A stretch of 10,392 nt of DNA from a virus (lineage: Duplodnaviria > Heunggongvirae > Uroviricota > Caudoviricetes): IMG/VR virus record IMGVR_UViG_3300025326_000020. One strand, written 5' to 3'. Under the pieces are notes generated by a model. It searched no databases and was not told the DNA's origin. It saw only the letters and a list, made by a program, of their open reading frames with translations. Shown one piece after another: positions 1 through 10,392 of this stretch; position 1 is the first letter of the stretch, and every line of letters begins with the position of its first letter. A program made the translations under genes and the position numbers.

Positions 1-81
1 TATCACCAATGTTACGGTTGCCCACATTCTTGCCTTTTCTGCTTTTGTTCGTGGTATAACCGGCTTTGTCCGACTAGCCAT
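1..81 (-). CDS. Hypothetical protein, N-terminal 27 codons only (runs off the left edge)
   Basis: ATG at 81-79 preceded by AAAGGGG; open frame MASRTKPVIPRTKAEKARMWATVTLVI to the window edge. Not in the ORF track. Confidence 0.55.
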   Translation of the reverse strand, partial: MASRTKPVIPRTKAEKARMWATVTLVI

Positions 82-323
82 TATTCGGCCCCTTTCAGGT
101 AGGGATGGCATAGGATGGGCTAAAATGTCGGCTTTCGAGGCATTTCGACTCTAATCCGCATAATAGTCCATCCTGCACCATTTCTACCTGAAATGTCGTG
201 TGCTGTCACTGTTTAGGTCTAAATGTCCGATTTGCCGGTTGATTCTGTCCGTTTTGGGTTGGAATCTGCCGCTACGTCCATTATAGCTCGCGCTTTGTGG
301 ACATATGGTACTAATCCGACATT

Positions 324-509
324 TTAGTATGTGACCTGCATCACATTTGTTCTGTCCTTTTTATCGTGTTGTATGATGACTTTACCAATTGCTGATAGTT
401 TGTTGCCAGTTGTGGCGTTTATACCACATGTGCAAGTTGCGGCATAAGTGCCATGTTGTACCTTTTGCACTGTTACATCATGTTTTACGTACTGTGGTAC
501 ATTCATCAT
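324..509 (-). CDS. Small hypothetical protein (61 aa), possible Zn-binding (H10, C26-x-C28, H48)
   Basis: RBS GGAGGA 3 nt before the ATG; co-oriented with neighbours. Confidence 0.75.
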   Translation of the reverse strand: MMNVPQYVKHDVTVQKVQHGTYAATCTCGINATTGNKLSAIGKVIIQHDKKDRTNVMQVTY

Positions 510-520
510 GATTCCTCCTG

Positions 521-842
521 ATATGTCCAGATTTAGGCTGCCATGCCTGATTTATTGTACTTAGAACATTTGCCCGATTTCCAACAATTGCTCTGATAGG
601 TAATGGAATTCGACATTTGTCCGATTTGAGTGGTATTCGCATGATTCCCACCATCTTACCACAATGGTGGGATTGTCCGGTTCGGTAATGTATGGGATGA
701 CTTTAGTCACTTTGCCCACACATGTACCTGTTTCGCACATTTGTACTTTTTCGATAATATCCTGCCTAGTTACGATGGTTCCTACCTTTAAGCTCATGTT
801 TGCCCCTTTTGATAGGGCATGGCAGTCTAAAACTAGACATAT
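521..842. repeat. Gene-enclosing inverted repeat 1 (arms 521-547 and 816-842)
   Basis: ATATGTCCAGATTTAGGCTGCCATGCC versus reverse complement of the right arm ATATGTCTAGTTTTAGACTGCCATGCC; 24/27. Confidence 0.9.
561..797 (-). CDS. Hypothetical protein (78 aa), possibly an SH3/KOW-like beta barrel
   Basis: RBS AAGGGG; LKVGTIV...VGKVTKV...IVVRW pattern; exactly enclosed by the 521-547/816-842 inverted repeat. Confidence 0.8.
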   Translation of the reverse strand: MSLKVGTIVTRQDIIEKVQMCETGTCVGKVTKVIPYITEPDNPTIVVRWWESCEYHSNRTNVEFHYLSEQLLEIGQMF

Positions 843-1201
843 ACGGATATAACGGGGTATGGGTGGTTTGGGGGTTTAGTAGGACTCTACGTAGTATGCA
901 GTAGTTTCAGTGGAAAAGTCCCAATCTTCCCATTGGTCCACATCGCCCATAATGCCTGGATCTTCTGATATGTCCTTGATGTCCTCTAGGAGGTACATAA
1001 GGCTTTCATCCGAATCGTCCTCTTTGAGCAATTTCTCCACATGTGTCTTTAATGTCCGAATTGCTTCCGGAAATGTGTCGAAATCGCCCAAAGGGGTACC
1101 TGTCAGACTTTCGTCATCAATCGGCTGATATGATACAGACCATCCCATTTTGTCCTCTTTCGAGATATAGTTACCCATACCCCGATATATCCGTACATGT
1201 C
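836..1201. repeat. Gene-enclosing inverted repeat 2 (836-864 and 1173-1201)
   Basis: GACATATACGGATATAACGGGGTATGGGT versus GACATGTACGGATATATCGGGGTATGGGT; 27/29. Confidence 0.95.
876..1148 (-). CDS. Highly acidic hypothetical protein (90 aa); start revised from 1349 to 1148
   Basis: Motif GAGGACAAA-ATG at 1148; MGWSVSYQPIDDES...; the track's 5' extension crosses repeat arms and overlaps the upstream gene. Confidence 0.8.
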   Translation of the reverse strand: MGWSVSYQPIDDESLTGTPLGDFDTFPEAIRTLKTHVEKLLKEDDSDESLMYLLEDIKDISEDPGIMGDVDQWEDWDFSTETTAYYVESY

Positions 1202-1202
1202 C

Positions 1203-1553
1203 ACACATATCCAACTTTAACCTACCTTGTGCTGATTTGGAAGGTTTTGCTACTATGTCACGGTTTGTGGTGGAATGTCCGATTTGGGAGGCTTTGAGGG
1301 TTGTTCCCGATCTGTCGCTCTTGTCATAAGAGCAGCCTGATCTTCCCATTCGTCCACATATTGGGTGTTATGGGACATACCATCCCATTCGTCGTAGTTT
1401 ATCCACTTTGCCCGACTATCATCCCAATAGCCCGATTCGTTCTCTTCGCGCATTGTGCGGCGATTGTACTCTTCTTCCGCATAGTCGCGTTCATCACTAT
1501 TGTTCATTTTGCCCACCTTTGTCTGACAAGGTAGGATAGAGCTGGATATGTGT
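1203..1553. repeat. Gene-enclosing inverted repeat 3 (1203-1230 and 1526-1553)
   Basis: ACACATATCCAACTTTAACCTACCTTGT versus ACACATATCCAGCTCTATCCTACCTTGT; 25/28. Confidence 0.9.
1253..1507 (-). CDS. Acidic, Y/W-rich hypothetical protein (84 aa); start revised to 1507
   Basis: AAAGGTGGGCAAA-ATG; MNNSDERDYAEEEY...; enclosed by the 1203-1230/1526-1553 inverted repeat. Confidence 0.7.
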   Translation of the reverse strand: MNNSDERDYAEEEYNRRTMREENESGYWDDSRAKWINYDEWDGMSHNTQYVDEWEDQAALMTRATDREQPSKPPKSDIPPQTVT

Positions 1554-1846
1554 TGGTATAGTAGCTTTAGACCGGCATGTCCGTTTTGTACTAGTTGTTG
1601 GTAAGTGAGGCGAAATCTGCCTTTTCGGCGATAAAGCGAACATCCTCCTTAATGTGCAGCAATGTCTCAATTGCTACAATTCCTGCCTCAATGCGGCTTT
1701 CGTCGCTTTCTGCACTAACTAGATCAAATGTGGCCTTTGTGTAGGTTGCCACCAATTGTCCGAAATGCTTCATAAAGGCGTTAACGTCCATTTTGTCCTC
1801 CAAAGGATGATTTGGTAGGACATGCCGGTTTAGAGCTACTATACCA
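1554..1846. repeat. Gene-enclosing inverted repeat 4 (1554-1582 and 1818-1846)
   Basis: TGGTATAGTAGCTTTAGACCGGCATGTCC versus TGGTATAGTAGCTCTAAACCGGCATGTCC; 27/29. Confidence 0.95.
1591..1791 (-). CDS. Hypothetical helical protein (66 aa); start revised to 1791
   Basis: GGAGGACAAA-ATG; MDVNAFMKHFGQLV... Confidence 0.8.
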   Translation of the reverse strand: MDVNAFMKHFGQLVATYTKATFDLVSAESDESRIEAGIVAIETLLHIKEDVRFIAEKADFASLTNN

Positions 1847-1847
1847 T

Positions 1848-2185
1848 GGATCATCTGGTTTATGGAGGTATGTTGGGCATTGTGCGGATTTAGCGGGTAA
1901 TTGCCTTTCGAGTAGGATCGTACGAATTGCGCCATGCGTTCCTAATGTCACGAAGTGCCCTGCTAGTAGCCAGTTTGTCCGTTTCGTCCTCAATGCCAGA
2001 CATGTCTACCATTCGATAGATTGCCTCGAATGAGGTAGTCAGTCCGATTAGTCGCATGAGTCCCTTAACTACTGACCTGTGGATTTTGCCCGAAGGATGC
2101 GGGTTTGGCCACATTTGCGCCCAAATGTCCATTTTGTGCTCCTTGTCAGGTTTTGCCCGACATACCCCCATAGACCAGATGATCC
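1848..2185. repeat. Gene-enclosing inverted repeat 5 (1848-1879 and 2154-2185)
   Basis: GGATCATCTGGTTTATGGAGGTATGTTGGGCA versus GGATCATCTGGTCTATGGGGGTATGTCGGGCA; 29/32. Confidence 0.95.
1890..2132 (-). CDS. Hypothetical protein (80 aa); start revised to 2132
   Basis: AAGGAGCACAAA-ATG; MDIWAQMWPNPHPSGK... Confidence 0.8.
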   Translation of the reverse strand: MDIWAQMWPNPHPSGKIHRSVVKGLMRLIGLTTSFEAIYRMVDMSGIEDETDKLATSRALRDIRNAWRNSYDPTRKAITR

Positions 2186-2342
2186 CTATTTACCCCTCCC
2201 TGTCCATATGTGTCCGGATTTGTGACGTATTGTCAGGGAGTCACCGATTCCTTCGGAAATGTTCAATTCTTGAGGACGTATCCGTATCCGTCCCTATATG
2301 TCGGTATTTGTCCTGACATGTCCGAATTTGTCGGTGCATCTT

Positions 2343-2640
2343 GGACTTACTACCTTCTGTCGGACATGTACGACATGCCCGATTTTTACCAGGTGTACCT
2401 TGGGTACTGGTTTCGGTTGATTTGATACATTTTGACCGCAATGTCCGTTTCGTACTCGATGACCGACATGTCAGGTTCCCCACACATGTCCAGAATGCCG
2501 AAAATGTCCATTATGTGCAGTTTTTCCATTATCTTCTCATATGCCCGCTTTGTCCCTTTACGCAACAATTCGTATGAATCATCCATTTTGTCTCCTTTGT
2601 GAACATTTATCGTACATGTCCGATAGGAGGTAGTAAGTCC
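2343..2640. repeat. Gene-enclosing inverted repeat 6 (2343-2373 and 2610-2640)
   Basis: GGACTTACTACCTTCTGTCGGACATGTACGA versus GGACTTACTACCTCCTATCGGACATGTACGA; 29/31. Confidence 0.95.
2386..2586 (-). CDS. Hypothetical protein (66 aa); start revised to 2586
   Basis: AAAGGAGACAAA-ATG; MDDSYELLRKGTKRAY... Confidence 0.8.
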   Translation of the reverse strand: MDDSYELLRKGTKRAYEKIMEKLHIMDIFGILDMCGEPDMSVIEYETDIAVKMYQINRNQYPRYTW

Positions 2641-2660
2641 TATTTCTACCGATAAGACCA

Positions 2661-3026
2661 ACATTTCCAGGTTTAAATGCATATGTCCGCTTTGAGTGGG
2701 TTTGTGCTACTTTACAGTGATTGTCCCGTTAGGGAGCTTTTCAACTGTTGCGTACCATTTGCGACTTGTGTACGGATTTGGACCAACAACGGTGTATTTG
2801 ATACCAATGTCCATATTGTCCATCATGACCGTTTTGCCTGCGTTTGGTCCAAATGCGTCAGTTACGTAGAATTCCACCTTTGTCGGGTACGTGGCGATTC
2901 TACCCTTAAGCTCCTTTTTGGTTGGAATGTCCGCATTGGTGTTAATATCTCTTGCGCCCACGTTTACGTACATTTGTGCTCCTTGTCCGATTTTATACGG
3001 ACATATGCACATAGACCCGGAAATGT
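2661..3026. repeat. Gene-enclosing inverted repeat 7 (2661-2689 and 2998-3026; gapped extension to 2648/3042)
   Basis: ACATTTCCAGGTTTAAATGCATATGTCCG versus ACATTTCCGGGTCTATGTGCATATGTCCG; 25/29. Confidence 0.9.
2707..2973 (-). CDS. Phage hypothetical protein (88 aa); start revised to 2973
   Basis: AAGGAGCACAA-ATG. TKKELK...VVGPNPYTSRKWYATV resembles, from memory, a small unknown-function family in actinobacterial phages; not verified by search. Confidence 0.8.
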   Translation of the reverse strand: MYVNVGARDINTNADIPTKKELKGRIATYPTKVEFYVTDAFGPNAGKTVMMDNMDIGIKYTVVGPNPYTSRKWYATVEKLPNGTITVK

Positions 3027-3028
3027 CC

Positions 3029-3333
3029 TGGTTTGTATCGGTTTAGACGGGTATGTCCGAAAATGTACTAGATCGTGCAGTTTTGGAATGCTTCGAAGGC
3101 ATTTGCCCATTCGTGGGCTGAATGCCAGATTCGCACCCAAATGAGATCATTGCCCCATATGCGCACTATCTCCACATAGTACCAATTGTCCATCCTGTCC
3201 GGTTTGCTTGCTTTGACCAGAATGGCCATTAGGTCAGGATTGTCATAAAACTTCCTTGCTGCTACGATGTGTCCCATTTTGTCCTCCATTGTCCGTTTTG
3301 AGAGGACATACCCGTTTAGACCGATACAAACCA
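3029..3333. repeat. Gene-enclosing inverted repeat 8 (3029-3058 and 3304-3333)
   Basis: TGGTTTGTATCGGTTTAGACGGGTATGTCC versus TGGTTTGTATCGGTCTAAACGGGTATGTCC; 28/30. Confidence 0.95.
3068..3277 (-). CDS. Hypothetical protein (69 aa); start revised to 3277
   Basis: GGAGGACAAA-ATG; MGHIVAARKFYDNPD... Confidence 0.8.
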   Translation of the reverse strand: MGHIVAARKFYDNPDLMAILVKASKPDRMDNWYYVEIVRIWGNDLIWVRIWHSAHEWANAFEAFQNCTI

Positions 3334-3355
3334 AAAGGCATAGTTTCGTGCCTTT
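3334..3355. other. Local hairpin (7-bp stem) at the head of the left gene block
   Basis: AAAGGCA-TAGTTTCG-TGCCTTT; abuts repeat 8. Followed by UUGGUUUG on the minus strand, so a weak terminator is possible. Confidence 0.5.
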
Positions 3356-3368
3356 GTCCGGTTCTGTC

Positions 3369-3410
3369 ACTATTGACTTATTAAGTAACGGTTTGACTGG
3401 GTTTCACCGG
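3369..3410 (-). promoter_or_regulatory. Conserved 42-bp element, copy 1 (candidate promoter or operator of the left gene block)
   Basis: 33/42 identical to 5328-5369; both copies lie directly upstream of a minus-strand gene block. Function is inferred. Confidence 0.5.
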
Positions 3411-3684
3411 ATTTCTACCGTTCCCAGCCGGTTTGGTATCTAATGCCGTCTTTTGTCCGATTCGGTGCTTTTTTGCTACTTTCAGTCTACTCTCGCCTAG
3501 TTTGGGCTGATTTATCATGATATGACCGATTTACCAGCTTATAGCAGGGCAAGTTTTGTACCGATTTAGCGGGATATGACGGATATGTCCGATTTACCGT
3601 ATATTCGGGGCAAACTGGACATGATCTTGTGAGATTTGTCACACCACTAAATCCACTCAACAGTGGTAATATCCGGACAAGTGC

Positions 3685-3973
3685 TAGATTGGGTAGATAT
3701 GAACTGGTATGTCCGTTTTGACTAGTTTAGGCTGTATCCTGCTGGTATGTACTCACTTGTCACTCTTGGCATGAAATGTACGTATTCGTCTGTCTTGTGC
3801 CAAATTACCTCTTTTGGGAGGTTTTCGAGTCGTGTGTACAGGTTTGACCGCTTTCGTCCTAGAATGTTCCAAACGCTAACTTTGCGGTGTTTGCCTGAAT
3901 AGCCCATTTTTGTCTCCTATGTCCGTTTTGTCTGCTGGGAAGCGGACATACCAGTACAAATCTACCCAATCTA
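3685..3973. repeat. Gene-enclosing inverted repeat 9 (3685-3715 and 3943-3973)
   Basis: TAGATTGGGTAGATATGAACTGGTATGTCCG versus TAGATTGGGTAGATTTGTACTGGTATGTCCG; 29/31. Confidence 0.95.
3722..3907 (-). CDS. Basic hypothetical protein (61 aa)
   Basis: AGGAGACAAAA-ATG; MGYSGKHRKVSVW... Confidence 0.8.
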   Translation of the reverse strand: MGYSGKHRKVSVWNILGRKRSNLYTRLENLPKEVIWHKTDEYVHFMPRVTSEYIPAGYSLN

Positions 3974-4235
3974 CGCATATCCGGATAAAAGAGCATATGT
4001 CCGTTTTGGGTGGTTAAATGCGGGTTAGTGACATTTTGAACGCATGCTGGGCATTTGTCGTGATTGTCTGCAAATGCACTATTGTGTCACACTTTGCCCT
4101 GCTGTGACACCTTTCGCACGTTTCCTTGTGATTCATTGCGTTTAGTCTGGCTTTGTCCCATTCTGCCCACAAATCTACCATTTTGTCCTCCATGTCCTAA
4201 ATGGGTGGACATATGCTCATTTATCCGGACATGCG
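3974..4235. repeat. Gene-enclosing inverted repeat 10 (3974-4002 and 4207-4235)
   Basis: CGCATATCCGGATAAAAGAGCATATGTCC versus CGCATGTCCGGATAAATGAGCATATGTCC; 27/29. Confidence 0.95.
4014..4181 (-). CDS. Hypothetical 55-aa protein with an H-x3-C-x2-C-x5-C putative Zn site (not in ORF track)
   Basis: GGAGGACAAA-ATG at 4181; MVDLWAEWDKARLNAMNHKETCERCHSRAKCDTIVHLQTITTNAQHAFKMSLTRI; TAA at 4016-4014; enclosed by its own inverted repeat. Confidence 0.8.
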   Translation of the reverse strand: MVDLWAEWDKARLNAMNHKETCERCHSRAKCDTIVHLQTITTNAQHAFKMSLTRI

Positions 4236-4236
4236 C

Positions 4237-4610
4237 GCATTTGTCCAGGTATGTGATGGTATGTCCGCTTTGTCAGTTACATTCCAAATGCCTCACTAAG
4301 CCACATTTGGGCTGCTTCCTCCTCATCTGAGGTGGTTAGTACCAATTGAGGGTTGTTGCCCTCTTTGTCCGTTTTGGACACCTGGTACCCATTTGTGAAA
4401 GTTGCCACAAATGAGTGAACTTGCACCAGTTGTACCAAAACGTCCTCATTGTCCCATTTCTGGGCTTCTGCGGTGGTTAAGTAGGAAAAAGGCTCATCTA
4501 CAACACTTTGCCCTACATGTCCAATTTGGGTACGATCTGACATGATATGCTCCTTTTGTTCGTTTTGTGCAAACCGAAACGGACATACCATCACAAACCC
4601 GGACAAATGC
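4237..4610. repeat. Gene-enclosing inverted repeat 11 (4237-4267 and 4580-4610)
   Basis: GCATTTGTCCAGGTATGTGATGGTATGTCCG versus GCATTTGTCCGGGTTTGTGATGGTATGTCCG; 29/31. Confidence 0.95.
4277..4543 (-). CDS. Hypothetical protein (88 aa); start revised to 4543
   Basis: AAAGGAGCATATC-ATG; MSDRTQIGHVGQSV... Confidence 0.75.
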   Translation of the reverse strand: MSDRTQIGHVGQSVVDEPFSYLTTAEAQKWDNEDVLVQLVQVHSFVATFTNGYQVSKTDKEGNNPQLVLTTSDEEEAAQMWLSEAFGM

Positions 4611-4611
4611 T

Positions 4612-4965
4612 GACTTATCCGGATTTAGGGGTGTATGTCCTTTTACGACCTATTTGACTAGATCGCGCCGATTTTCCACGGTTCGACCTCTATGGTCGCT
4701 TCGCGTAGAATGTCGGTTGCCTCACCATTGTCGTTTATGAGGCATTCGCTCATAATGACCGTATTGCCCAAATTGGGCAATCTGACCACTACGTAGTATT
4801 TGTCCTCATTGTCGGGAGTGAGGAAATTCTCCTCATATCCCACAACTGTCCCGATTTGCACCCGGAAGTCGTCTTTGTCCAAATAGTACTGAGCGTCCAT
4901 GATTGTCTCCTTTGTCCATTTTACTTGGATTTGGGAGGACATACACCCTTAGATCCGGATAAGTC
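4612..4965. repeat. Gene-enclosing inverted repeat 12 (4612-4641 and 4936-4965)
   Basis: GACTTATCCGGATTTAGGGGTGTATGTCCT versus GACTTATCCGGATCTAAGGGTGTATGTCCT; 28/30. Confidence 0.95.
4658..4900 (-). CDS. Acidic hypothetical protein (80 aa), possibly SH3-like; start revised to 4900
   Basis: AAAGGAGACAATC-ATG; MDAQYYLDKDDFRVQIGTVVG... Confidence 0.8.
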   Translation of the reverse strand: MDAQYYLDKDDFRVQIGTVVGYEENFLTPDNEDKYYVVVRLPNLGNTVIMSECLINDNGEATDILREATIEVEPWKIGAI

Positions 4966-4972
4966 TCATTTG

Positions 4973-5290
4973 CCTCACATGTACCCTATGTCCGACATGT
5001 CCGTTTTTCCTACTTTAGGACTTTTTGGTCCTGATTGTCGGTCCTGTGTAGCTTGTCGACATTACGGCATAGATGAGGTTTGTCTCCTTTGGCCTGTTTC
5101 CATCCAGTACGTCCGATGTGACCCATTCTGTCCGTTCTAGCCGGGTTGCGAAGATTGCCCCATCTTTCCATTCTGTCACGGTCCATACCTCTCGTAACAA
5201 TTCGTATGAATTGTCCATTTTGTCCATTTTGTCTCCTATGTCCGTTTCTGCCCGGGGAGCGGACATGTCGGATATGGGGGACATGTGAGG
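4973..5290. repeat. Gene-enclosing inverted repeat 13 (4973-5003 and 5260-5290)
   Basis: CCTCACATGTACCCTATGTCCGACATGTCCG versus CCTCACATGTCCCCCATATCCGACATGTCCG; 28/31. Confidence 0.95.
5015..5227 (-). CDS. Hypothetical protein (70 aa); start revised to 5227 (or 5218)
   Basis: AGGAGACAAA-ATG; MDKMDNSYELLREVW... Confidence 0.75.
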   Translation of the reverse strand: MDKMDNSYELLREVWTVTEWKDGAIFATRLERTEWVTSDVLDGNRPKETNLIYAVMSTSYTGPTIRTKKS

Positions 5291-5292
5291 TT

Positions 5293-5312
5293 TAGCGGGA
5301 TAGCTCCCGCTA
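5293..5312. other. Local hairpin (8-bp stem) at the head of the five-gene block
   Basis: TAGCGGGA-TAGC-TCCCGCTA, between repeat 13 and the outer arm. Confidence 0.6.
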
Positions 5313-5327
5313 TGTCCGGATATCTCC

Positions 5328-5369
5328 ACTGTTGAGTTGATAAGTAACGATTTGGAGGGATTTCACCGG
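5328..5369 (-). promoter_or_regulatory. Conserved 42-bp element, copy 2
   Basis: Minus-strand consensus CCGGTGAAA-N8-AAA-N-CGTTACTTA; overlaps the outer stem arm. Confidence 0.5.
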
Positions 5370-5428
5370 CTTGTCGGATATTTGGGGAATGTCCGATAGT
5401 ACCGTTTCCCGCCCTTTGACCTACTTCA

Positions 5429-5437
5429 AGTATAGCA
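5429..5437 (-). promoter_or_regulatory. Candidate extended -10 element TG-C-TATACT facing the small-gene array
   Basis: Matches TGn-TAnnnT; no recognisable -35. A related TGCTATAAG lies at about 3538-3546, upstream of the other block. Confidence 0.3.
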
Positions 5438-6036
5438 TGGGCCTATTATGTCCATATATCGGATATGTCCGATATATGCGGATAATAGTTGGTGCATATA
5501 TGGTCATATATCCGGACATTTCGGGAATGTCGGACTGCAAATGTCGGCCTTAGTACGATATATCCTGATATAGTAGGGCAAAACGGACAGGGCATACCAG
5601 GGCAATCGCGACAATACCGACAAATCGGACATTTGTGGGTATTCGGGCTAATGGGGCATAGGCCACATATCGGGCACAGCCTGCCCGTATTATGATGATA
5701 TGTCCGGATATAGCGGACTGTGAAATTTGTCACTGGCCGGATATATGCGCATAAATCGGGCACGACCGCTGGCCGGCGCGAGAGTGTTGAAATATACCTT
5801 ATATCGTATATGTCCGATATATGCCCATATAGTAGGGCGCTGCCCTGCCGCCCCCCGCCCTGTCCGATTTGCCCCCTTATAATGTATATACGCGCATATA
5901 GGCTGATTTATCCGATTTAAGCCCATATATGAGGACAAATGGATGTCCTGATATATCGGCATAAATCAGGACAAAGATTAACTATATTACGAAATATCAA
6001 CATAAATCGGACATTCCGGTAGGTTTCGCGAAAATC

Positions 6037-6150
6037 GGTGTATTTTTCAAATGTTAGTAATTTTACATGATGATAGGTTTGTTTTTCAAATGTTAGTAAT
6101 TTTACATGATGATAGGTGTATTTTTCAAATGTTAGTAATTTTACATGATG
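6037..6150. repeat. 39-bp AT-rich tandem repeat, 2.9 copies
   Basis: Unit GGTGTATTTTTCAAATGTTAGTAATTTTACATGATGATA at 6037-6075, 6076-6114 (2 mismatches) and 6115-6150 (partial). Confidence 0.95.
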
Positions 6151-6519
6151 CTGAACCCCGGAGATCTAACATGATAATAAATTATAGACCCGGAGAAATT
6201 TAAAAAGAAAAATCGAAAAAAGTGTTGGATTTCTAACACTCTGAAGATCAATTGAAAAATCCAAAAAAGTGTCGGATTTTTTACATGATAACAAAAACAC
6301 AAACCCCGGAACCCCGAAGAAAATTGAAAAGAAAAGTCCAAAAAAGTGTTGGAGATTCTTCACATTTAAACACAATGAATGAAACCCCGGAGATTTTTGG
6401 CCCCGAGCCGTTTTTGAGCTCTGCTACAAGTGTCACAGCACTGACAAGATCCAAAACTTTATGTCGACAGTAGCTCTGTTATGCTGTATCCTGATACTGG
6501 AGTCTCTAAGGAGGTGAAC

Positions 6520-7647: not shown

Positions 7648-7665
7648 AAATTGATGAGGAAAATT

Positions 7666-9078
7666 ATGGTCGGCGAGGCAGTGCGGCAGGTCTCGAAGGA
7701 AAAATACTTCGAGCTGATTAAGTATGAGCCGCACGCCCGCCAACGAATGTTTCATGATTCTACCGCTAGATTTAAAATTCCAGTGTGTGGAAGAAGATTC
7801 GGAAAAACAGTAATGGGCGCCCGGGAAGCCGAACCCATTTTGATGATTCCAAACAAACTGGTGTGGATTGTCGGGCCGACATATGACCTTGGCGAGAAGG
7901 AATTCCGAGTTATTTGGAATGACATGATTGTCAAGTTAGGCTTGGGTAAAGAAAAATCTGTTAAAAGAGCCTTCAACAAGCGTGCCGGCGATATGTATAT
8001 TGAATTCCCATGGAATACTAGAGTTGAAGTGCGCAGTGCTGACCGGCCGGAAACGTTGGTTGGTGATGGTCTTGATTATGTTATTATGGCCGAAGCAGCC
8101 AAGCATACTAAGGAAACTTGGGATCGATTTATTCGACCAGCGTTAACTGATACTAAGGGTTCGGCTACCTTCAGCACCACGCCGGAAGGACAGAACTGGA
8201 TTCATGACTTGTGGCAGTTGGGTCAGAATCCAATGTTTGAGGAATATGAAAGCTGGCGCTTTCCATCTTGGGAAAATGTTCATATTTACCCAGATGGTAT
8301 AAACGATCAGGAAATTAAGCTCCTTGAGAGAACAATGCCATATGAATGGTTTCAGCAGGAAATTGCGGCTGACTTCACAACCTTCATGGGTAAGATTTAT
8401 TCTGAGTGGGATGAACAGACACACGTTAAGGCTACTAAGTTTAATCCGTTGTGGAAAAATTACATTGCCTTTGACTGGGGTTTCGTTAACCCGATGGCGG
8501 CAGTGGAGTTTCAAGTTGATCCAATGGACCGAGTACACATTTGGCGGATGCACTACAAAACTCACACCAGACTAGAAACCTTCCTTCAAGAAATGCAGGC
8601 AAGAGAGCAGCCACCTGGTTACCATATTAACCTTTGCTTCGGTGATGCCGCCGATCCAGAAGCTGTTGCTACTGTTTGTGCGAGATTTGGGCCATGCATT
8701 GCCGATCCAAAATCTAAGGATAACTGGCGAGAAGGCATAGATTTGGTCAAAGGTTTTTTGTCGACCCGTACCGTGGGCACGTCCGATGAATTCGAGACGC
8801 CGGTGGATGAGCCCTGGCTGTTCGTTGACCACTCCTGCTACGACATAATTCGTGAATTCAACAACTACCGTGCAGCGGCGCCGAGTACTGGTAAGCCAAG
8901 AAACCCGCGTGAAGATGCGCAGAAATACGACGACCACGCGCTAGACGCATTGCGGTATGGACTTATGCACATTTTCAAGTTGGGATCTACGATGTCTTTG
9001 TCGGAGTTTGTCAACGCAAACGAAATGAAAGATATTCCAGACAGGGGTTACTTTACCCAAAATATGGTGTTCTCATGA
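7666..9078 (+). CDS. terL: Terminase large subunit (about 470 aa); likely start 7666
   Basis: Walker A CGRRFGKT, Walker B-like YVIMAE, coupling motif STTP, RNase H-like nuclease acids (AFDWG, FGDAA, DDHALDALRY); RBS GAGGA before ATG 7666; followed by portal. Confidence 0.95.
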   Translation: MVGEAVRQVSKEKYFELIKYEPHARQRMFHDSTARFKIPVCGRRFGKTVMGAREAEPILMIPNKLVWIVGPTYDLGEKEFRVIWNDMIVKLGLGKEKSVKRAFNKRAGDMYIEFPWNTRVEVRSADRPETLVGDGLDYVIMAEAAKHTKETWDRFIRPALTDTKGSATFSTTPEGQNWIHDLWQLGQNPMFEEYESWRFPSWENVHIYPDGINDQEIKLLERTMPYEWFQQEIAADFTTFMGKIYSEWDEQTHVKATKFNPLWKNYIAFDWGFVNPMAAVEFQVDPMDRVHIWRMHYKTHTRLETFLQEMQAREQPPGYHINLCFGDAADPEAVATVCARFGPCIADPKSKDNWREGIDLVKGFLSTRTVGTSDEFETPVDEPWLFVDHSCYDIIREFNNYRAAAPSTGKPRNPREDAQKYDDHALDALRYGLMHIFKLGSTMSLSEFVNANEMKDIPDRGYFTQNMVFS

Positions 9079-9181: not shown

Positions 9182-10392
9182 ATGCCAGATACTAACGAAG
9201 ATATTATTGCTGCCATCGAAAGTCGGATTGAGCAGAAAGTTGCTCAGATGACCCTCAGTGAGGCATATGGTAACTATGATCTGGTGTCTTCGGTGTATGA
9301 CCCTGTGAATGGGTCATATGTTGTCATGGCCGAGCGCGACCCTAAGATGTCAACCAGTACTGCGTTCAAGGAAATGGGATATAGTTCGCCATCACCGTTT
9401 ACTGCTTGGACGCGCGAGGAGCGGGTTGGTGAGCTAAGAGATAAGCTTGGTATTCGGGTCTACTATGATATGAAGCGGGCCGATGGTACTGTTCGTGGCG
9501 CCCTTCGGCTTCTTAAGACGCCAGTTATGGCGGCGCGCTGGTTTGTTGAACCTGCATCTGATTCAGTTTTAGACACTAACATTGCCAAATTTGTTGAAGA
9601 AAATCTGTTTGAGAAGCTAAATATGCCATGGCATCGGGTGTTGGAAGATGCTCTATTGATGTGCGAGTATGGATATCTACCACTTGAGAAGGTATATGGA
9701 CTAGATTCAGATGGTAGAATTATTTTAAAGAAATTGGCACCTCGGCACCCGCTTGACATTCAAGAGTGGATATATGATGACGCTGGTGGACCTGATGGAA
9801 TTGTCATGGACCCAACCGAAGCTAATGGTTGGAACCCTATTGCAATTCCTATTGAGAAATTAGTTGTCTTTGTTCTGGAACAAGAGGCCGGCGATATGCG
9901 TGGAATTAGCATTCTCAGGTCAGCTTACAAGCACTACTTCTATAAGGACACCCTTTATAAAATCGACGCCATTCAAAAAGAGCGGCACGGAATTGGTGTC
10001 CCCATTATTAAACTACCTCTTGGGTATAGTCCAAGCGATCGTCAATTGGCTGAGGATCTTGGTAGAAATCTTAGAACGAATGAAAGAGCACATATAACGC
10101 TGCCAGAGAATTGGACTGTGGAGTTTGCGAAACTTGAAGGGCAGCCAGTGGATTGTATGCTATCAATTGAACACCACAATGATCAGATTATGGCTAACAT
10201 TCTAGCACCGTTCTATCGAGAAGCAAATGCTAAAGAAGATTCAATGAACATGTTCTACAAAGCAACCAGATACATTGCTTCTACTATTGCTGATACCTTC
10301 AATCGATATGTTATTAGGCAGTTAGTAGACTTTAACTTTAGTCGGGGTAAGTACCCAACTCTCCGTGCCCGTCGTATTGGTGAAAATGAAGA
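9182..10392 (+). CDS. Portal protein, DUF935/Mu gp29-like, 3'-truncated by the window
   Basis: RBS GAGGGGAG; about 403 open codons to the edge; D..VRGALRLLKTPV, EYGYLPLEKVY and GISILRSAYKHYFYK...ERHGIGVP motifs; position after terL. Confidence 0.9.
   Translation, partial: MPDTNEDIIAAIESRIEQKVAQMTLSEAYGNYDLVSSVYDPVNGSYVVMAERDPKMSTSTAFKEMGYSSPSPFTAWTREERVGELRDKLGIRVYYDMKRADGTVRGALRLLKTPVMAARWFVEPASDSVLDTNIAKFVEENLFEKLNMPWHRVLEDALLMCEYGYLPLEKVYGLDSDGRIILKKLAPRHPLDIQEWIYDDAGGPDGIVMDPTEANGWNPIAIPIEKLVVFVLEQEAGDMRGISILRSAYKHYFYKDTLYKIDAIQKERHGIGVPIIKLPLGYSPSDRQLAEDLGRNLRTNERAHITLPENWTVEFAKLEGQPVDCMLSIEHHNDQIMANILAPFYREANAKEDSMNMFYKATRYIASTIADTFNRYVIRQLVDFNFSRGKYPTLRARRIGENE

Follow-up and report, generated by a model that had tools for sequence, protein, structure and literature searches.

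An uncultured soil phage carries 13 small genes in its first operon, and each of them lies between two mutually pairing sequences (arms), which are complementary, covary, fold on the sense strand with a fixed geometry, and are restricted to the first early genes. We favor, at a probability of roughly 0.55, the view that the arms are strands of long-range RNA helices within the polycistronic early transcript, and that these helices are probably cut at their symmetric center by a dimeric double-strand-specific RNA nuclease, such as the host RNase III. One long transcript would then probably be handled as separate, end-clamped messages.

The gene array and its relatives

The window, meaning the whole 10,392-nucleotide stretch of phage DNA that was analyzed, carries all 13 ORFs of the array on its minus strand (561-5227). 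Each is preceded by a GGAG-type ribosome-binding site, and an independent gene caller found the same ORFs in other assemblies of this phage. For all 13 genes, one arm is located 18 to 35 nt upstream of the ATG, and its complement lies 3 to 22 nt past the stop codon. The arms are 27 to 38 nt in length and 86-94% complementary. A preliminary description of this DNA had stated that every one of these genes is enclosed by its own inverted repeat, and all 13 pairs were indeed recovered, with none in shuffles; a scan for such pairs gave 14 in the window and 0.0 in shuffled sequence.

Cassette 1 (4973-5290) comprises a 5' arm at 5290-5260, an ORF at 5227-5015 (70 aa), and a 3' arm at 5003-4973; in each of the seven phages, the first slot is taken by its arm type, A3. 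In cassette 2 (4604-4972), arms at 4965-4936 (extending to 4972) and 4641-4612 (extending to 4604) enclose the ORF at 4900-4658 (80 aa). With 5' arm, ORF, and 3' arm given in that order, the following cassettes are 3 (4237-4610: 4610-4580, 4543-4277 encoding 88 aa, 4267-4237), 4 (3974-4235: 4235-4207, 4181-4014 encoding 55 aa, 4002-3974), and 5 (3682-3977: 3973-3943, 3907-3722 encoding 61 aa, 3715-3685). The array is interrupted at 3334-3684 and resumes with cassettes 6 (3029-3333: 3333-3304, 3277-3068 encoding 69 aa, 3058-3029), 7 (2661-3026: 3026-2998, 2973-2707 encoding 88 aa, 2689-2661), and 8 (2343-2640: 2640-2610, 2586-2386 encoding 66 aa, 2373-2343). Beyond a second gap at 2186-2342 are cassettes 9 (1848-2185: 2185-2154, 2132-1890 encoding 80 aa, 1879-1848), 10 (1554-1846: 1846-1818, 1791-1591 encoding 66 aa, 1582-1554), 11 (1203-1553: 1553-1526, 1507-1253 encoding 84 aa, 1230-1203), 12 (836-1201: 1201-1173, 1148-876 encoding 90 aa, 864-836), and 13 (521-842: 842-816, 797-561 encoding 78 aa, 547-521). 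Within runs, neighboring arm pairs are spaced by -7 to +7 nt, and cassettes 12 and 13 share 7 nt, where the 3' arm of the former runs into the 5' arm of the latter. The next gene downstream of the array (ORF 509-324) has no arms.

Two tandem sigma-70-like promoter matches, by consensus only (TTGAAA, 18 nt, TAAAAT; 10/12 each), are found on the minus strand at 6060-6128, within a direct repeat in AT-rich sequence. This region is a candidate start for the early leftward transcript. Promoter-like sites were seen only there, upstream of the array, and a sequence scan found neither promoter-like nor terminator-like sites in excess inside it; the array may be cotranscribed as one polycistronic RNA. 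The first run is headed by an element at 5294-5349 (minus strand) that consists of a conserved 23-nt core (5349-5327) and a small hairpin (5311-5294) ending 3 nt before the first arm. A second copy of the core (3390-3368) belongs to the element that heads the second run (3334-3390, minus strand), whose hairpin (3355-3334) directly precedes the 5' arm of cassette 6.

Pairing is specific. The upstream and downstream flanks of the same gene score 39-54 against each other, and noncognate combinations score 10-35, apart from three that are an artefact of overlapping flank windows. The 3' arm of one gene and the 5' arm of the gene after it score at background and have only a 7-nt box in common, and no local hairpins form between neighboring arms.

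Eight or more related phages, all uncultured, have the same arrays, limited to the first ~4 kb of the early operon. Six to 11 arrayed pairs occur in each of the close relatives L002-L007 (terminase ~80% identical), four in the L031/L034 clade (terminase 55% identical), and another contig, L074 (110 kb), has an array as well. Three relatives with complete genomes (81, 76, and 74 kb) have such pairs essentially only in one array, which heads an operon divergent from the structural genes. Gene content is highly mosaic among the relatives, and the arm design is constant. Cassettes, arm pairs, and even half-arms reassort, with homology breakpoints inside ORFs or at the inner box and not at arm ends. 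Because arms and genes reassort, the arms are, in evolutionary terms, specific to the pair and not to the gene, contrary to the preliminary description: proteins that are 73-80% identical occur within unrelated arms, and arms that are 91-95% identical surround unrelated proteins. The single gene orientation that it had noted extends to all 63 of the 63 cassettes of close relatives.

Helix design and covariation

A structural model was built on 61 distinct cassettes from the phage and its relatives. The arms form a helix of 29 bp (offsets -22 to +6), paired in 90-100% of these cassettes, and its variable positions show three to six pair types each. The ends are sharp, with pairing at background level by -24 and +8. 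The outer half consists of 12-13 variable bp, and the 13-bp inner half ends in a near-invariant AUGUCC(G)/(C)GGACAU box. Predicted duplex energies range from -38 to -54 kcal/mol, with ~-46 kcal/mol for the 29-bp helix and ~-21 kcal/mol for its inner 13 bp. The sequence CGGACA, which is ~20-fold in excess throughout the early transcript, occurs in the early module only.

Offsets -10 and -7 are unpaired and flank two positions that are paired in 97% of cassettes. At the exact center of the helix, both strands read 5'-C-N-N-A-3', which gives a two-fold symmetric motif of C·A, two base pairs, and A·C, with U·U as an alternative. The central mismatches are only C·A, A·C, and U·U (with one U·C), and never purine-purine. 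Both central positions are unpaired in 39/56 cassettes, and the neighbors of the presumed cuts are unpaired in 39-51/56. The central dinucleotides of the two arms are complementary in 19 of the 21 cassettes in which this can be distinguished, and identical in none.

At 20 variable positions, an arm is paired with its own partner at 98.2%, versus 54.9% with swapped partners (maximum of 60.9% in 1000 permutations). Comparisons of related arms revealed 588 doubly compensated changes, 153 in which a wobble preserves the pair, and 72 that break it. Applied to first-slot cassettes, RNAalifold recovers this stem and leaves the identical two columns unpaired, and both the MFE and centroid folds (RNAfold) of a 1301-nt RNA with four cassettes contain all four stems. 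The claim of the preliminary description that pairing is maintained is borne out by very strong covariation across seven phages. These comparisons of sequences support the view that selection keeps pairing and not one binding sequence. That description had stated that each pair differs in sequence, but the arms are not free-form: one consensus, with the inner box and the fixed mismatch positions that it had missed, is common to all.

Outside the center, non-Watson-Crick pairs on the sense strand comprise 49 G·U and 10 A·C (p=2.7e-7). This excess of G·U suggests folding in the mRNA. A point against the RNA reading is that a single DNA strand, if folded, would accommodate G·T wobbles as well.

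Proposed processing and alternative explanations

We infer the cleavage, the identity of the enzyme, and the stabilization of the products, which would proceed as follows. Once transcribed, a 3' arm would pair with the 5' arm lying 200-350 nt back on the transcript, and each ribosome-binding site and ORF would be placed in a loop of its own, closed by a 29-bp helix. The outer 12-13 bp and the six variable inner pairs would form a private address that matches a 5' arm to its partner, and the constant box would close the loop. A dimeric double-strand RNA endonuclease, most simply host RNase III, may act at the two-fold symmetric center and cut both strands with the usual two-position stagger. 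Each gene would be freed on a monocistronic mRNA of its own, with its 5' and 3' ends still held together by the 13-bp inner helix and out of reach of end-dependent RNases, and the outer halves would be thrown away as short linker RNAs.

The 29 positions of the helix are within the length of an RNase III-type processing helix (about 20 bp or more), and two paired positions between two marked positions are compatible with the geometry of its cuts. Long-range duplexes in mRNA, 10-36 bp in length and formed by strands up to 505 nt apart, are cut by RNase III with a 2-bp stagger (PMC11780869, PMC6212723). At mapped E. coli and B. subtilis sites, the positions beside the cuts are >90% paired (PMC11780869, PMC6212723); this canonical motif, with pairing beside the scissile bonds, is absent here if the cuts lie on either side of the central 2 bp. 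Such an unpaired center might prevent cleavage, as an anti-determinant, or might serve another enzyme. No RNase III gene was found in these phages, and the complete relatives also lack an integrase, a resolvase, and RtcB. The invariant inner box and the CGGACA excess are not explained by RNase III.

Perhaps the same RNA helices form but stay uncut, as structural insulators or clamps, although we consider this rather unlikely. With the central mismatches interrupting it, the helix would offer no segment longer than 13 bp and would be ignored by RNase III. Each translation unit would fold apart from its neighbors, which would suit a module with constantly swapped genes, and double-stranded intergenic RNA would keep out Rho and single-strand endonucleases. 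All of the pairing evidence also fits uncut helices; so do a center unlike canonical RNase III sites, extremely mosaic gene content beside a constant arm design, and arms that stop just outside the ribosome-binding site and stop codon. However, a mere anti-determinant need not be symmetric and exactly central with exactly two paired positions, and equal halves of 12-13 bp fit a dimer centered on the motif. It is improbable that a phage or host factor other than RNase III reads the box and the C·A/A·C loop and excises the ORFs, after which these might be ligated into circular mRNAs or the flanks joined. Such a factor would act by analogy with archaeal bulge-helix-bulge processing, and would recognize early RNA by its CGGACA tag. 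The complete relatives, in which many ORFs have no assigned function, yielded neither RtcB nor a recognizable RNA ligase or nuclease candidate, and the only nonstructural genes that co-occur with arrays encode Ro60 and a DUF2786/DUF7168 protein. The invariant box and the fixed mismatch chemistry do go beyond generic dsRNA recognition, and the confinement of CGGACA to the early module fits a dedicated factor, but 1x1 mismatches 2 bp apart differ from 3-nt bulges 4 bp apart.

The arms might instead be DNA-level recombination sites that bound mobile cassettes in the manner of integrons, invertases, or transposons, perhaps as folded single-stranded DNA. The reassortment of cassettes, arm pairs, and half-arms would agree with such sites; arms cut and rejoined at their centers would give palindromic sites, and integron attC sites likewise keep structure over sequence. 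This explanation is very improbable, as no tyrosine or serine recombinase was found in three complete genomes, cassette orientation is uniform, outer arm ends are the variable part and lack target-site duplications, arms can overlap, and neighboring arms form no attC-like hairpins. Because the central dinucleotides are complementary and never identical, a directly repeated crossover core at the arm center was excluded. The term "exchangeable gene cassettes" from the preliminary description is apt for the mosaicism, but the homology breakpoints miss the arm ends and no recombinase was found in the three complete genomes. A functionless repeat, homogenized by gene conversion as an intergenic element, would account for the one consensus behind all arms. 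It is disfavored to the point that we give it hardly any credence: it does not predict the fixed mismatch positions, the 5:1 sense-strand G·U excess, or the sharp helix ends, and pairing is kept despite complete sequence turnover between phages with ~80% identical terminases.

Comparison with known systems

A literature search found no published description of this architecture. Early genes of T7 and SP82/SPO1 have RNase III sites between genes, in local hairpins, and the T7 sites contain an internal loop at the cut. In the array, a phage early polycistronic RNA would likewise be divided into defined messages, but each helix encloses a gene and the facing arms of adjacent genes are not complementary; with these arms at background, a T7-type intercistronic hairpin was rejected. 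Integron attC sites are local hairpins after each ORF, used by the IntI integrase at a GTTRRRY core. Their cassettes resemble those of the array in having promoterless small ORFs in one orientation, structure kept over sequence, and reshuffling. An attC identity was rejected, because the array lacks an IntI-type recombinase, a local palindrome, and a directly repeated core; PF00589 (tyrosine recombinase) is absent from the complete relatives G001, G002, and G005 and two partial ones, in agreement with a Pfam scan of G001 ORFs. PF00239 (serine invertase) is absent from the relatives scanned, and with 63/63 cassettes in the same orientation a Hin/Gin/Cin-type invertible segment was rejected. No transposase family occurs among the scanned ORFs. 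Terminal inverted repeats of a transposon or MITE were rejected on the grounds that the outer ends are most variable, the box is at the inner end, and arms abut or overlap. The archaeal bulge-helix-bulge motif, in which a 4-bp helix separates two 3-nt bulges, was rejected for the mismatch geometry described above.

PeSL cassettes in the hyperplastic regions of T4-type phages are directly repeated units of a promoter and a local hairpin (PMC2839356, PMC4122927). As in the array, small orphan early genes of a highly mosaic region are bounded by a conserved regulatory motif, which probably provides homology for shuffling (PMC2839356, PMC4122927), but PeSLs neither pair across a gene nor show pair-specific covariation. 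The ends of one message also pair in icaR of Staphylococcus aureus, where 5'UTR-3'UTR pairing covers the Shine-Dalgarno sequence and represses translation, with involvement of RNase III (PMC3868564). In contrast, the array arms come no closer than 18 nt to the ATG and do not cover the ribosome-binding site, and icaR is a single gene and not an array. Cellular long-range RNase III duplexes are similar in length (10-36 bp) and in separation of strands (up to ~500 nt) in B. subtilis (PMC11780869) and E. coli (PMC6212723), and their two cuts span two paired positions, like the 97% paired center of the array helix. However, these sites are scattered, are not systematically placed around whole cistrons, and are >90% paired beside the cuts, where the array has C·A/A·C or U·U.

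The rRNA stalks of 16S and 23S rRNA in bacterial rrn operons are also similar (PMC10250234). In both cases, flanking complements pair over hundreds of nucleotides within one precursor, a putative one for the array, the helix is about two to three turns long, and successive units of an operon are held in their own stem-closed loops. As in the stalks, the flanking segments of the array pair under selection, and the helix is on the transcribed strand, as judged from the 49:10 G·U bias. Unlike the stalks, the array places 13 protein-coding mRNAs in a row, with a strict 29-bp design, two fixed mismatches, and a conserved box, and its cleavage is putative.

An array of enclosed genes

Each of the 13 consecutive minus-strand genes in the window, from 5227-5015 down to 797-561, is enclosed by its own pair of complementary arms, as the preliminary description had stated. 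The 5' arm lies 18-35 nucleotides before the ATG and the 3' arm 3-22 nucleotides after the stop codon; the arms are 27-38 nucleotides long and 86-94% complementary. In an all-against-all comparison of the flanks of the window genes, cognate upstream and downstream flanks score 39-54 and non-cognate combinations 10-35, except for three values that are due to overlapping flank windows. The next downstream gene (509-324) is without arms in this comparison, and shuffled sequence yields zero such arm pairs. Neighboring helices abut at -7 to +7 nucleotides inside runs, and gaps at 2186-2342 and 3334-3684 split the array into runs of five, three, and five genes with their arms (cassettes). The gene-free gap of 157 nucleotides at 2186-2342, between cassettes 8 and 9, contains several GGACA sequences and a small hairpin (GGGACG..CGTCCTC).

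Small minus-strand ORFs with GGAG-type ribosome-binding sites fill the left 5.3 kb of the window. The genes for the large terminase (7651-9078; the match to Terminase_6N is weak) and a Mu/P23-45-type portal (9182-10390) are on the plus strand, and this structural block and the early block diverge from an AT-rich region. Two tandem, identical sigma-70-like promoter matches (TTGAAA, 18 nucleotides, TAAAAT) face left at 6128-6099 and 6089-6060. They are carried by a tandem direct repeat of about 39 bp (6050-6135), at which metagenome contigs break. The leader between these promoters and the first cassette is about 750 nucleotides long, and no convincing gene was found in it. From 5440 to 5940, it contains nested, longer-range inverted repeats (5447-5476/5800-5829, 5569-5593/5857-5881, and 5734-5759/5912-5937) and palindromic ATATCGGACATATCCGATAT-like motifs, and may be an operator or another structured-RNA region.

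A head element of about 60 nucleotides directly precedes the first arm of runs 1 and 2, at 5349-5294 and 3390-3334 on the minus strand; none occurs in the 2186-2342 gap. It comprises the core CAAATCGTTACTTA..AACTCAA.AGTG, then a small hairpin, and is conserved in the related IMG/VR loci L002, L003, L005, and L006. Its agreement with the boxA consensus of E. coli is limited to 8 of 13 positions. The element may act as a promoter, in antitermination, or as a signal for processing.

No nucleotide match to the window was found among 50,697 cultured phage records, and the best cultured match to its terminase is about 35% identical. The window DNA is of soil-metagenome origin. Other assemblies of the window phage are 99.98% identical to it, and matches to the array sequence come from three soil-metagenome DNA contigs; searches with the array and with one of its runs gave no RNA dataset. 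Ten of the 13 small array proteins were scanned, and none of these ten belongs to a Pfam or PHROG family.

A terminase-based search of IMG/VR returned 39 related loci. Among those that include upstream flank, the six closest (L002-L007, about 80% terminase identity) have 6-11 arrayed pairs each in the same place. The L031/L033/L034 clade (55% identical) has four pairs, and most other relatives at 55-60% terminase identity have none or one. Scanning IMG/VR with a 17-base arm pattern gave eight stretches, of which two are known relatives, one is a new array (L074), and the others look like chance. The new array occupies 3409-6040 of a 110-kb contig (IMGVR_UViG_3300009147_000001) and has at least six cassettes of the same arm design. 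Every pair in the relatives snugly surrounds one minus-strand ORF and its ribosome-binding site. The single orientation observed in the window extends to 63 of 63 cassettes of close relatives, including two that a longest-ORF heuristic assigned to the opposite strand and that have normal minus-strand genes. Within three complete relatives with terminal repeats (G001, 81 kb; G002, 76 kb; G005, 74 kb), arm pairs are essentially confined to one array of about 4 kb, which is the head of a leftward operon adjoining the structural genes.

A covarying helix with a symmetric center

The arms of 61 distinct cassettes were aligned on the initial A of the conserved ATGTCC, which lies at the end of the 5' arm nearest the gene. 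The helix spans offsets -22 (often -23) to +6, and pairing is at background at -24 and +8. Offsets 0 to +6 form a box that is almost invariant, AUGUCC(G) with its partner (C)GGACAU. Offsets -22 to -11 and -6 to -1 are freely variable, with three to six pair types per position, yet they are 90-98% paired. By comparison, about 75-80% of cassettes lack pairing at offsets -10 and -7, and the two positions between them are paired in 97%. The helix thus consists of a 12-13-bp outer half, a mismatch, 2 bp, a second mismatch, and a 13-bp inner half. Its center reads 5'-C-N-N-A-3' on both strands, with CUAA the commonest form, and is thus two-fold symmetric. The central mismatches are C·A, A·C, or U·U, with a single U·C, and no purine-purine mismatch occurs. 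Of 56 well-anchored cassettes, 39 have both positions unpaired and only five have both paired. Energy predictions range from -38 to -54 kcal/mol for the 13 duplexes of the window, and the inner 13 bp by themselves reach about -21.

The preliminary description proposed that pairing, rather than one binding sequence, is maintained, and comparison among related phages agrees with it. Cognate arms are paired at 98.2% over 20 variable positions, versus 54.9% for swapped partners (maximum 60.9% in 1000 permutations). When related arms were compared between genomes (132 pairs), 588 differences had a compensating change on the partner strand, 153 preserved the base pair as a wobble, and 72 disrupted it. 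RNAalifold applied to four cassettes from slot 1, the first of the array, arrives at this long-range stem too, including its two unpaired columns, and 13 of the pairs have changes on both sides. Also, RNAfold predicts all four stems in a 1301-nucleotide, four-cassette transcript, in both the minimum free energy and the centroid structures.

Non-Watson-Crick pairs outside the two central positions include 49 G·U and 10 A·C when read on the sense strand (p=2.7e-7). Every phage that offers enough cases for a judgment shows the bias, the window least of all (6:4). Since a sense-strand G·U would be mismatched in duplex DNA or on the antisense strand, it is the sense strand that folds. The obvious folding candidate is the mRNA, because the arms enclose precisely the translation units of a single operon. 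That the arms form RNA stems, as originally interpreted, is strongly supported by comparative data.

Mosaic cassettes and recombination

The gene content of the arrays is highly mosaic, and about 80 cassettes share only 14 protein clusters. Protein homology is almost uncoupled from arm identity: proteins that are 80% and 73% identical occur in unrelated arms, and unrelated proteins are enclosed by arms that are 95%, 91%, and 86% identical. Arm type A3 occupies slot 1 in all seven phages, whichever gene is inside. The arms were at first called gene-specific, but because arms and proteins reassort, they are better described as pair-specific. Nucleotide homology between relatives ends at the inner box or within ORFs, and not at arm ends. 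In our reading, recombination is frequent at the conserved box and in leader sequences, and its products are filtered by selection for pairing. The diversity within a genome of the variable arm segments (the addresses) would prevent a 5' arm from pairing with the wrong 3' arm.

Alternatively, the arms might be DNA sites for site-specific recombination, with the CTAA center as crossover core. Insertion at an asymmetric core creates hybrid sites that are inverted repeats differing only in the core, as CTAA differs from TTAG, and this would neatly explain the two mismatches. However, such a model requires the same core sequence in both arms. Among the 21 cassettes with a central dinucleotide other than a self-complementary one, 19 carry its complement in the 3' arm and none carries the identical dinucleotide there; the crossover core was rejected for this reason. 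That the variable part of the arms is their outer ends also argues against recombination sites. No local attC-like hairpins were found between neighboring arms, and no joints, inversions, or deletions were found at 400-6400 in the three soil-metagenome contigs, from which rare forms could escape. The complete relatives have no tyrosine or serine recombinase (integrase or resolvase). A Pfam scan of the larger ORFs of G001 reveals a lytic-type set, likewise without a recombinase: family A DNA polymerase, primase, ThyX, PD-(D/E)XK nuclease, SNF2 helicase, Fic, and Ro60.

When relatives were compared, the only genes co-occurring with arrays were those for Ro60 and a DUF2786/DUF7168 protein, which occurs commonly in phages and plasmids and has no known function. 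All three complete relatives with arrays carry the Ro60/TROVE gene (G001, 70238-71827; G002, about 43.9-45.5 kb; G005, about 14.0-15.6 kb). It was not found in three relatives without arrays, namely G006 (94% complete) and the partial G007 and G008. A connection between the arrays and structured-RNA turnover is only a lead, as the samples are few and phylogenetically related.

Possible functions and known systems

A helix of about 29 bp with equal halves, a two-fold symmetric center, and exactly two paired positions between the marked ones fits cutting by a dimeric, RNase III-class enzyme. RNase III cuts in E. coli and B. subtilis are two positions apart, and these positions are about 90% paired (PMC6212723, PMC11780869). 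The B. subtilis enzyme cuts mRNA duplexes of 10-36 bp whose strands are up to 505 nucleotides apart (PMC11780869). If both arms were cut at the center, each gene would be freed as a separate monocistronic mRNA, with the 13-bp inner helix still clamping its ends, and short linker RNAs, each consisting of two outer halves, would also be released. RNase III and RtcB are absent from the relatives searched; because no RNase III of the phages' own was found, the host enzyme would be used. Such cutting is the likeliest mechanism, and processing and stabilization by the stems are plausible. However, mapped RNase III sites are more than 90% paired beside the cuts (PMC6212723, PMC11780869), unlike the phage helix, which has C·A or U·U there. 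Perhaps the center instead blocks cleavage, leaving the stem as a clamp or insulator, or serves another enzyme.

The early region (window 1-6050, minus strand) has 32 copies of CGGACA on its sense strand, versus 1.6 expected, and 65 of GGACA, versus 7 expected. The copies sit in ORFs, leaders, and arms. Hardly any CGGACA occurs in the late region or in the other 65-70 kb of G001 and G002, whose CGGACA-rich early stretches are at about 6-18 kb and 18-31 kb, respectively. CGGACA looks like an oriented early-module tag for an RNA- or DNA-binding factor. Several leaders, namely those at 5260-5228 and 3943-3908 in the window and those of slot 1 in L002, L003, and L006, have a second CGGACAU just 5' of the Shine-Dalgarno sequence. 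It can pair locally with AUGUCCG of the 5' arm as a 7-bp hairpin that competes with the long-range helix, and may be a co-transcriptional folding intermediate or a switch.

It is conceivable, though we think it improbable, that a dedicated dimeric factor and not generic RNase III reads the AUGUCCG/CGGACAU box and the symmetric C·A-2bp-A·C loop. Such a factor would cut out each early ORF in the form of a panhandle mRNA or even a circular one, the addresses would make cassettes orthogonal and freely exchangeable, and the early-only CGGACA tag would provide timed control over the full set of early messages. The phage's own Ro60/Y-RNA machinery might take part in this system.

The RNase III sites of T7 and SP82-type phages are local hairpins, a feature that the array does not have in the flank comparison. 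The nearest analogues of the phage stems are the leader-trailer stalks of rRNA operons (PMC10250234) and the long-range RNase III duplexes that lie scattered among cellular mRNAs (PMC11780869, PMC6212723). Pairing of the icaR type between 5' and 3' regions covers the ribosome-binding site (PMC3868564), whereas the phage arms avoid theirs. The PeSLs of T4-type phages (PMC2839356, PMC4122927) have a similar mosaic-cassette context, but without pairing across the gene. No account of long-range stems around individual genes in phage mRNAs or operons turned up in full-text literature searches.

The usual picture of a phage early operon is a simple polycistronic message, or one that is cut at local hairpins. 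Here, a whole block of orphan genes of the host-takeover type forms a chain of stem-closed loops on one precise plan, which is conserved despite complete sequence turnover. This large natural set of covarying long-range mRNA helices offers a testbed for cut-site choice by double-stranded RNA nucleases, including the effect of C·A mismatches. The array also suggests that pairing at long range within mRNAs is a regular element of phage design. If the stems are processing sites, they would be a natural, modular way to express many unrelated small genes from one promoter, with defined mRNA ends, stability that can be set gene by gene, and every gene insulated from its sequence context. Synthetic biology makes such devices from ribozymes, Csy4, or RNase III sites.
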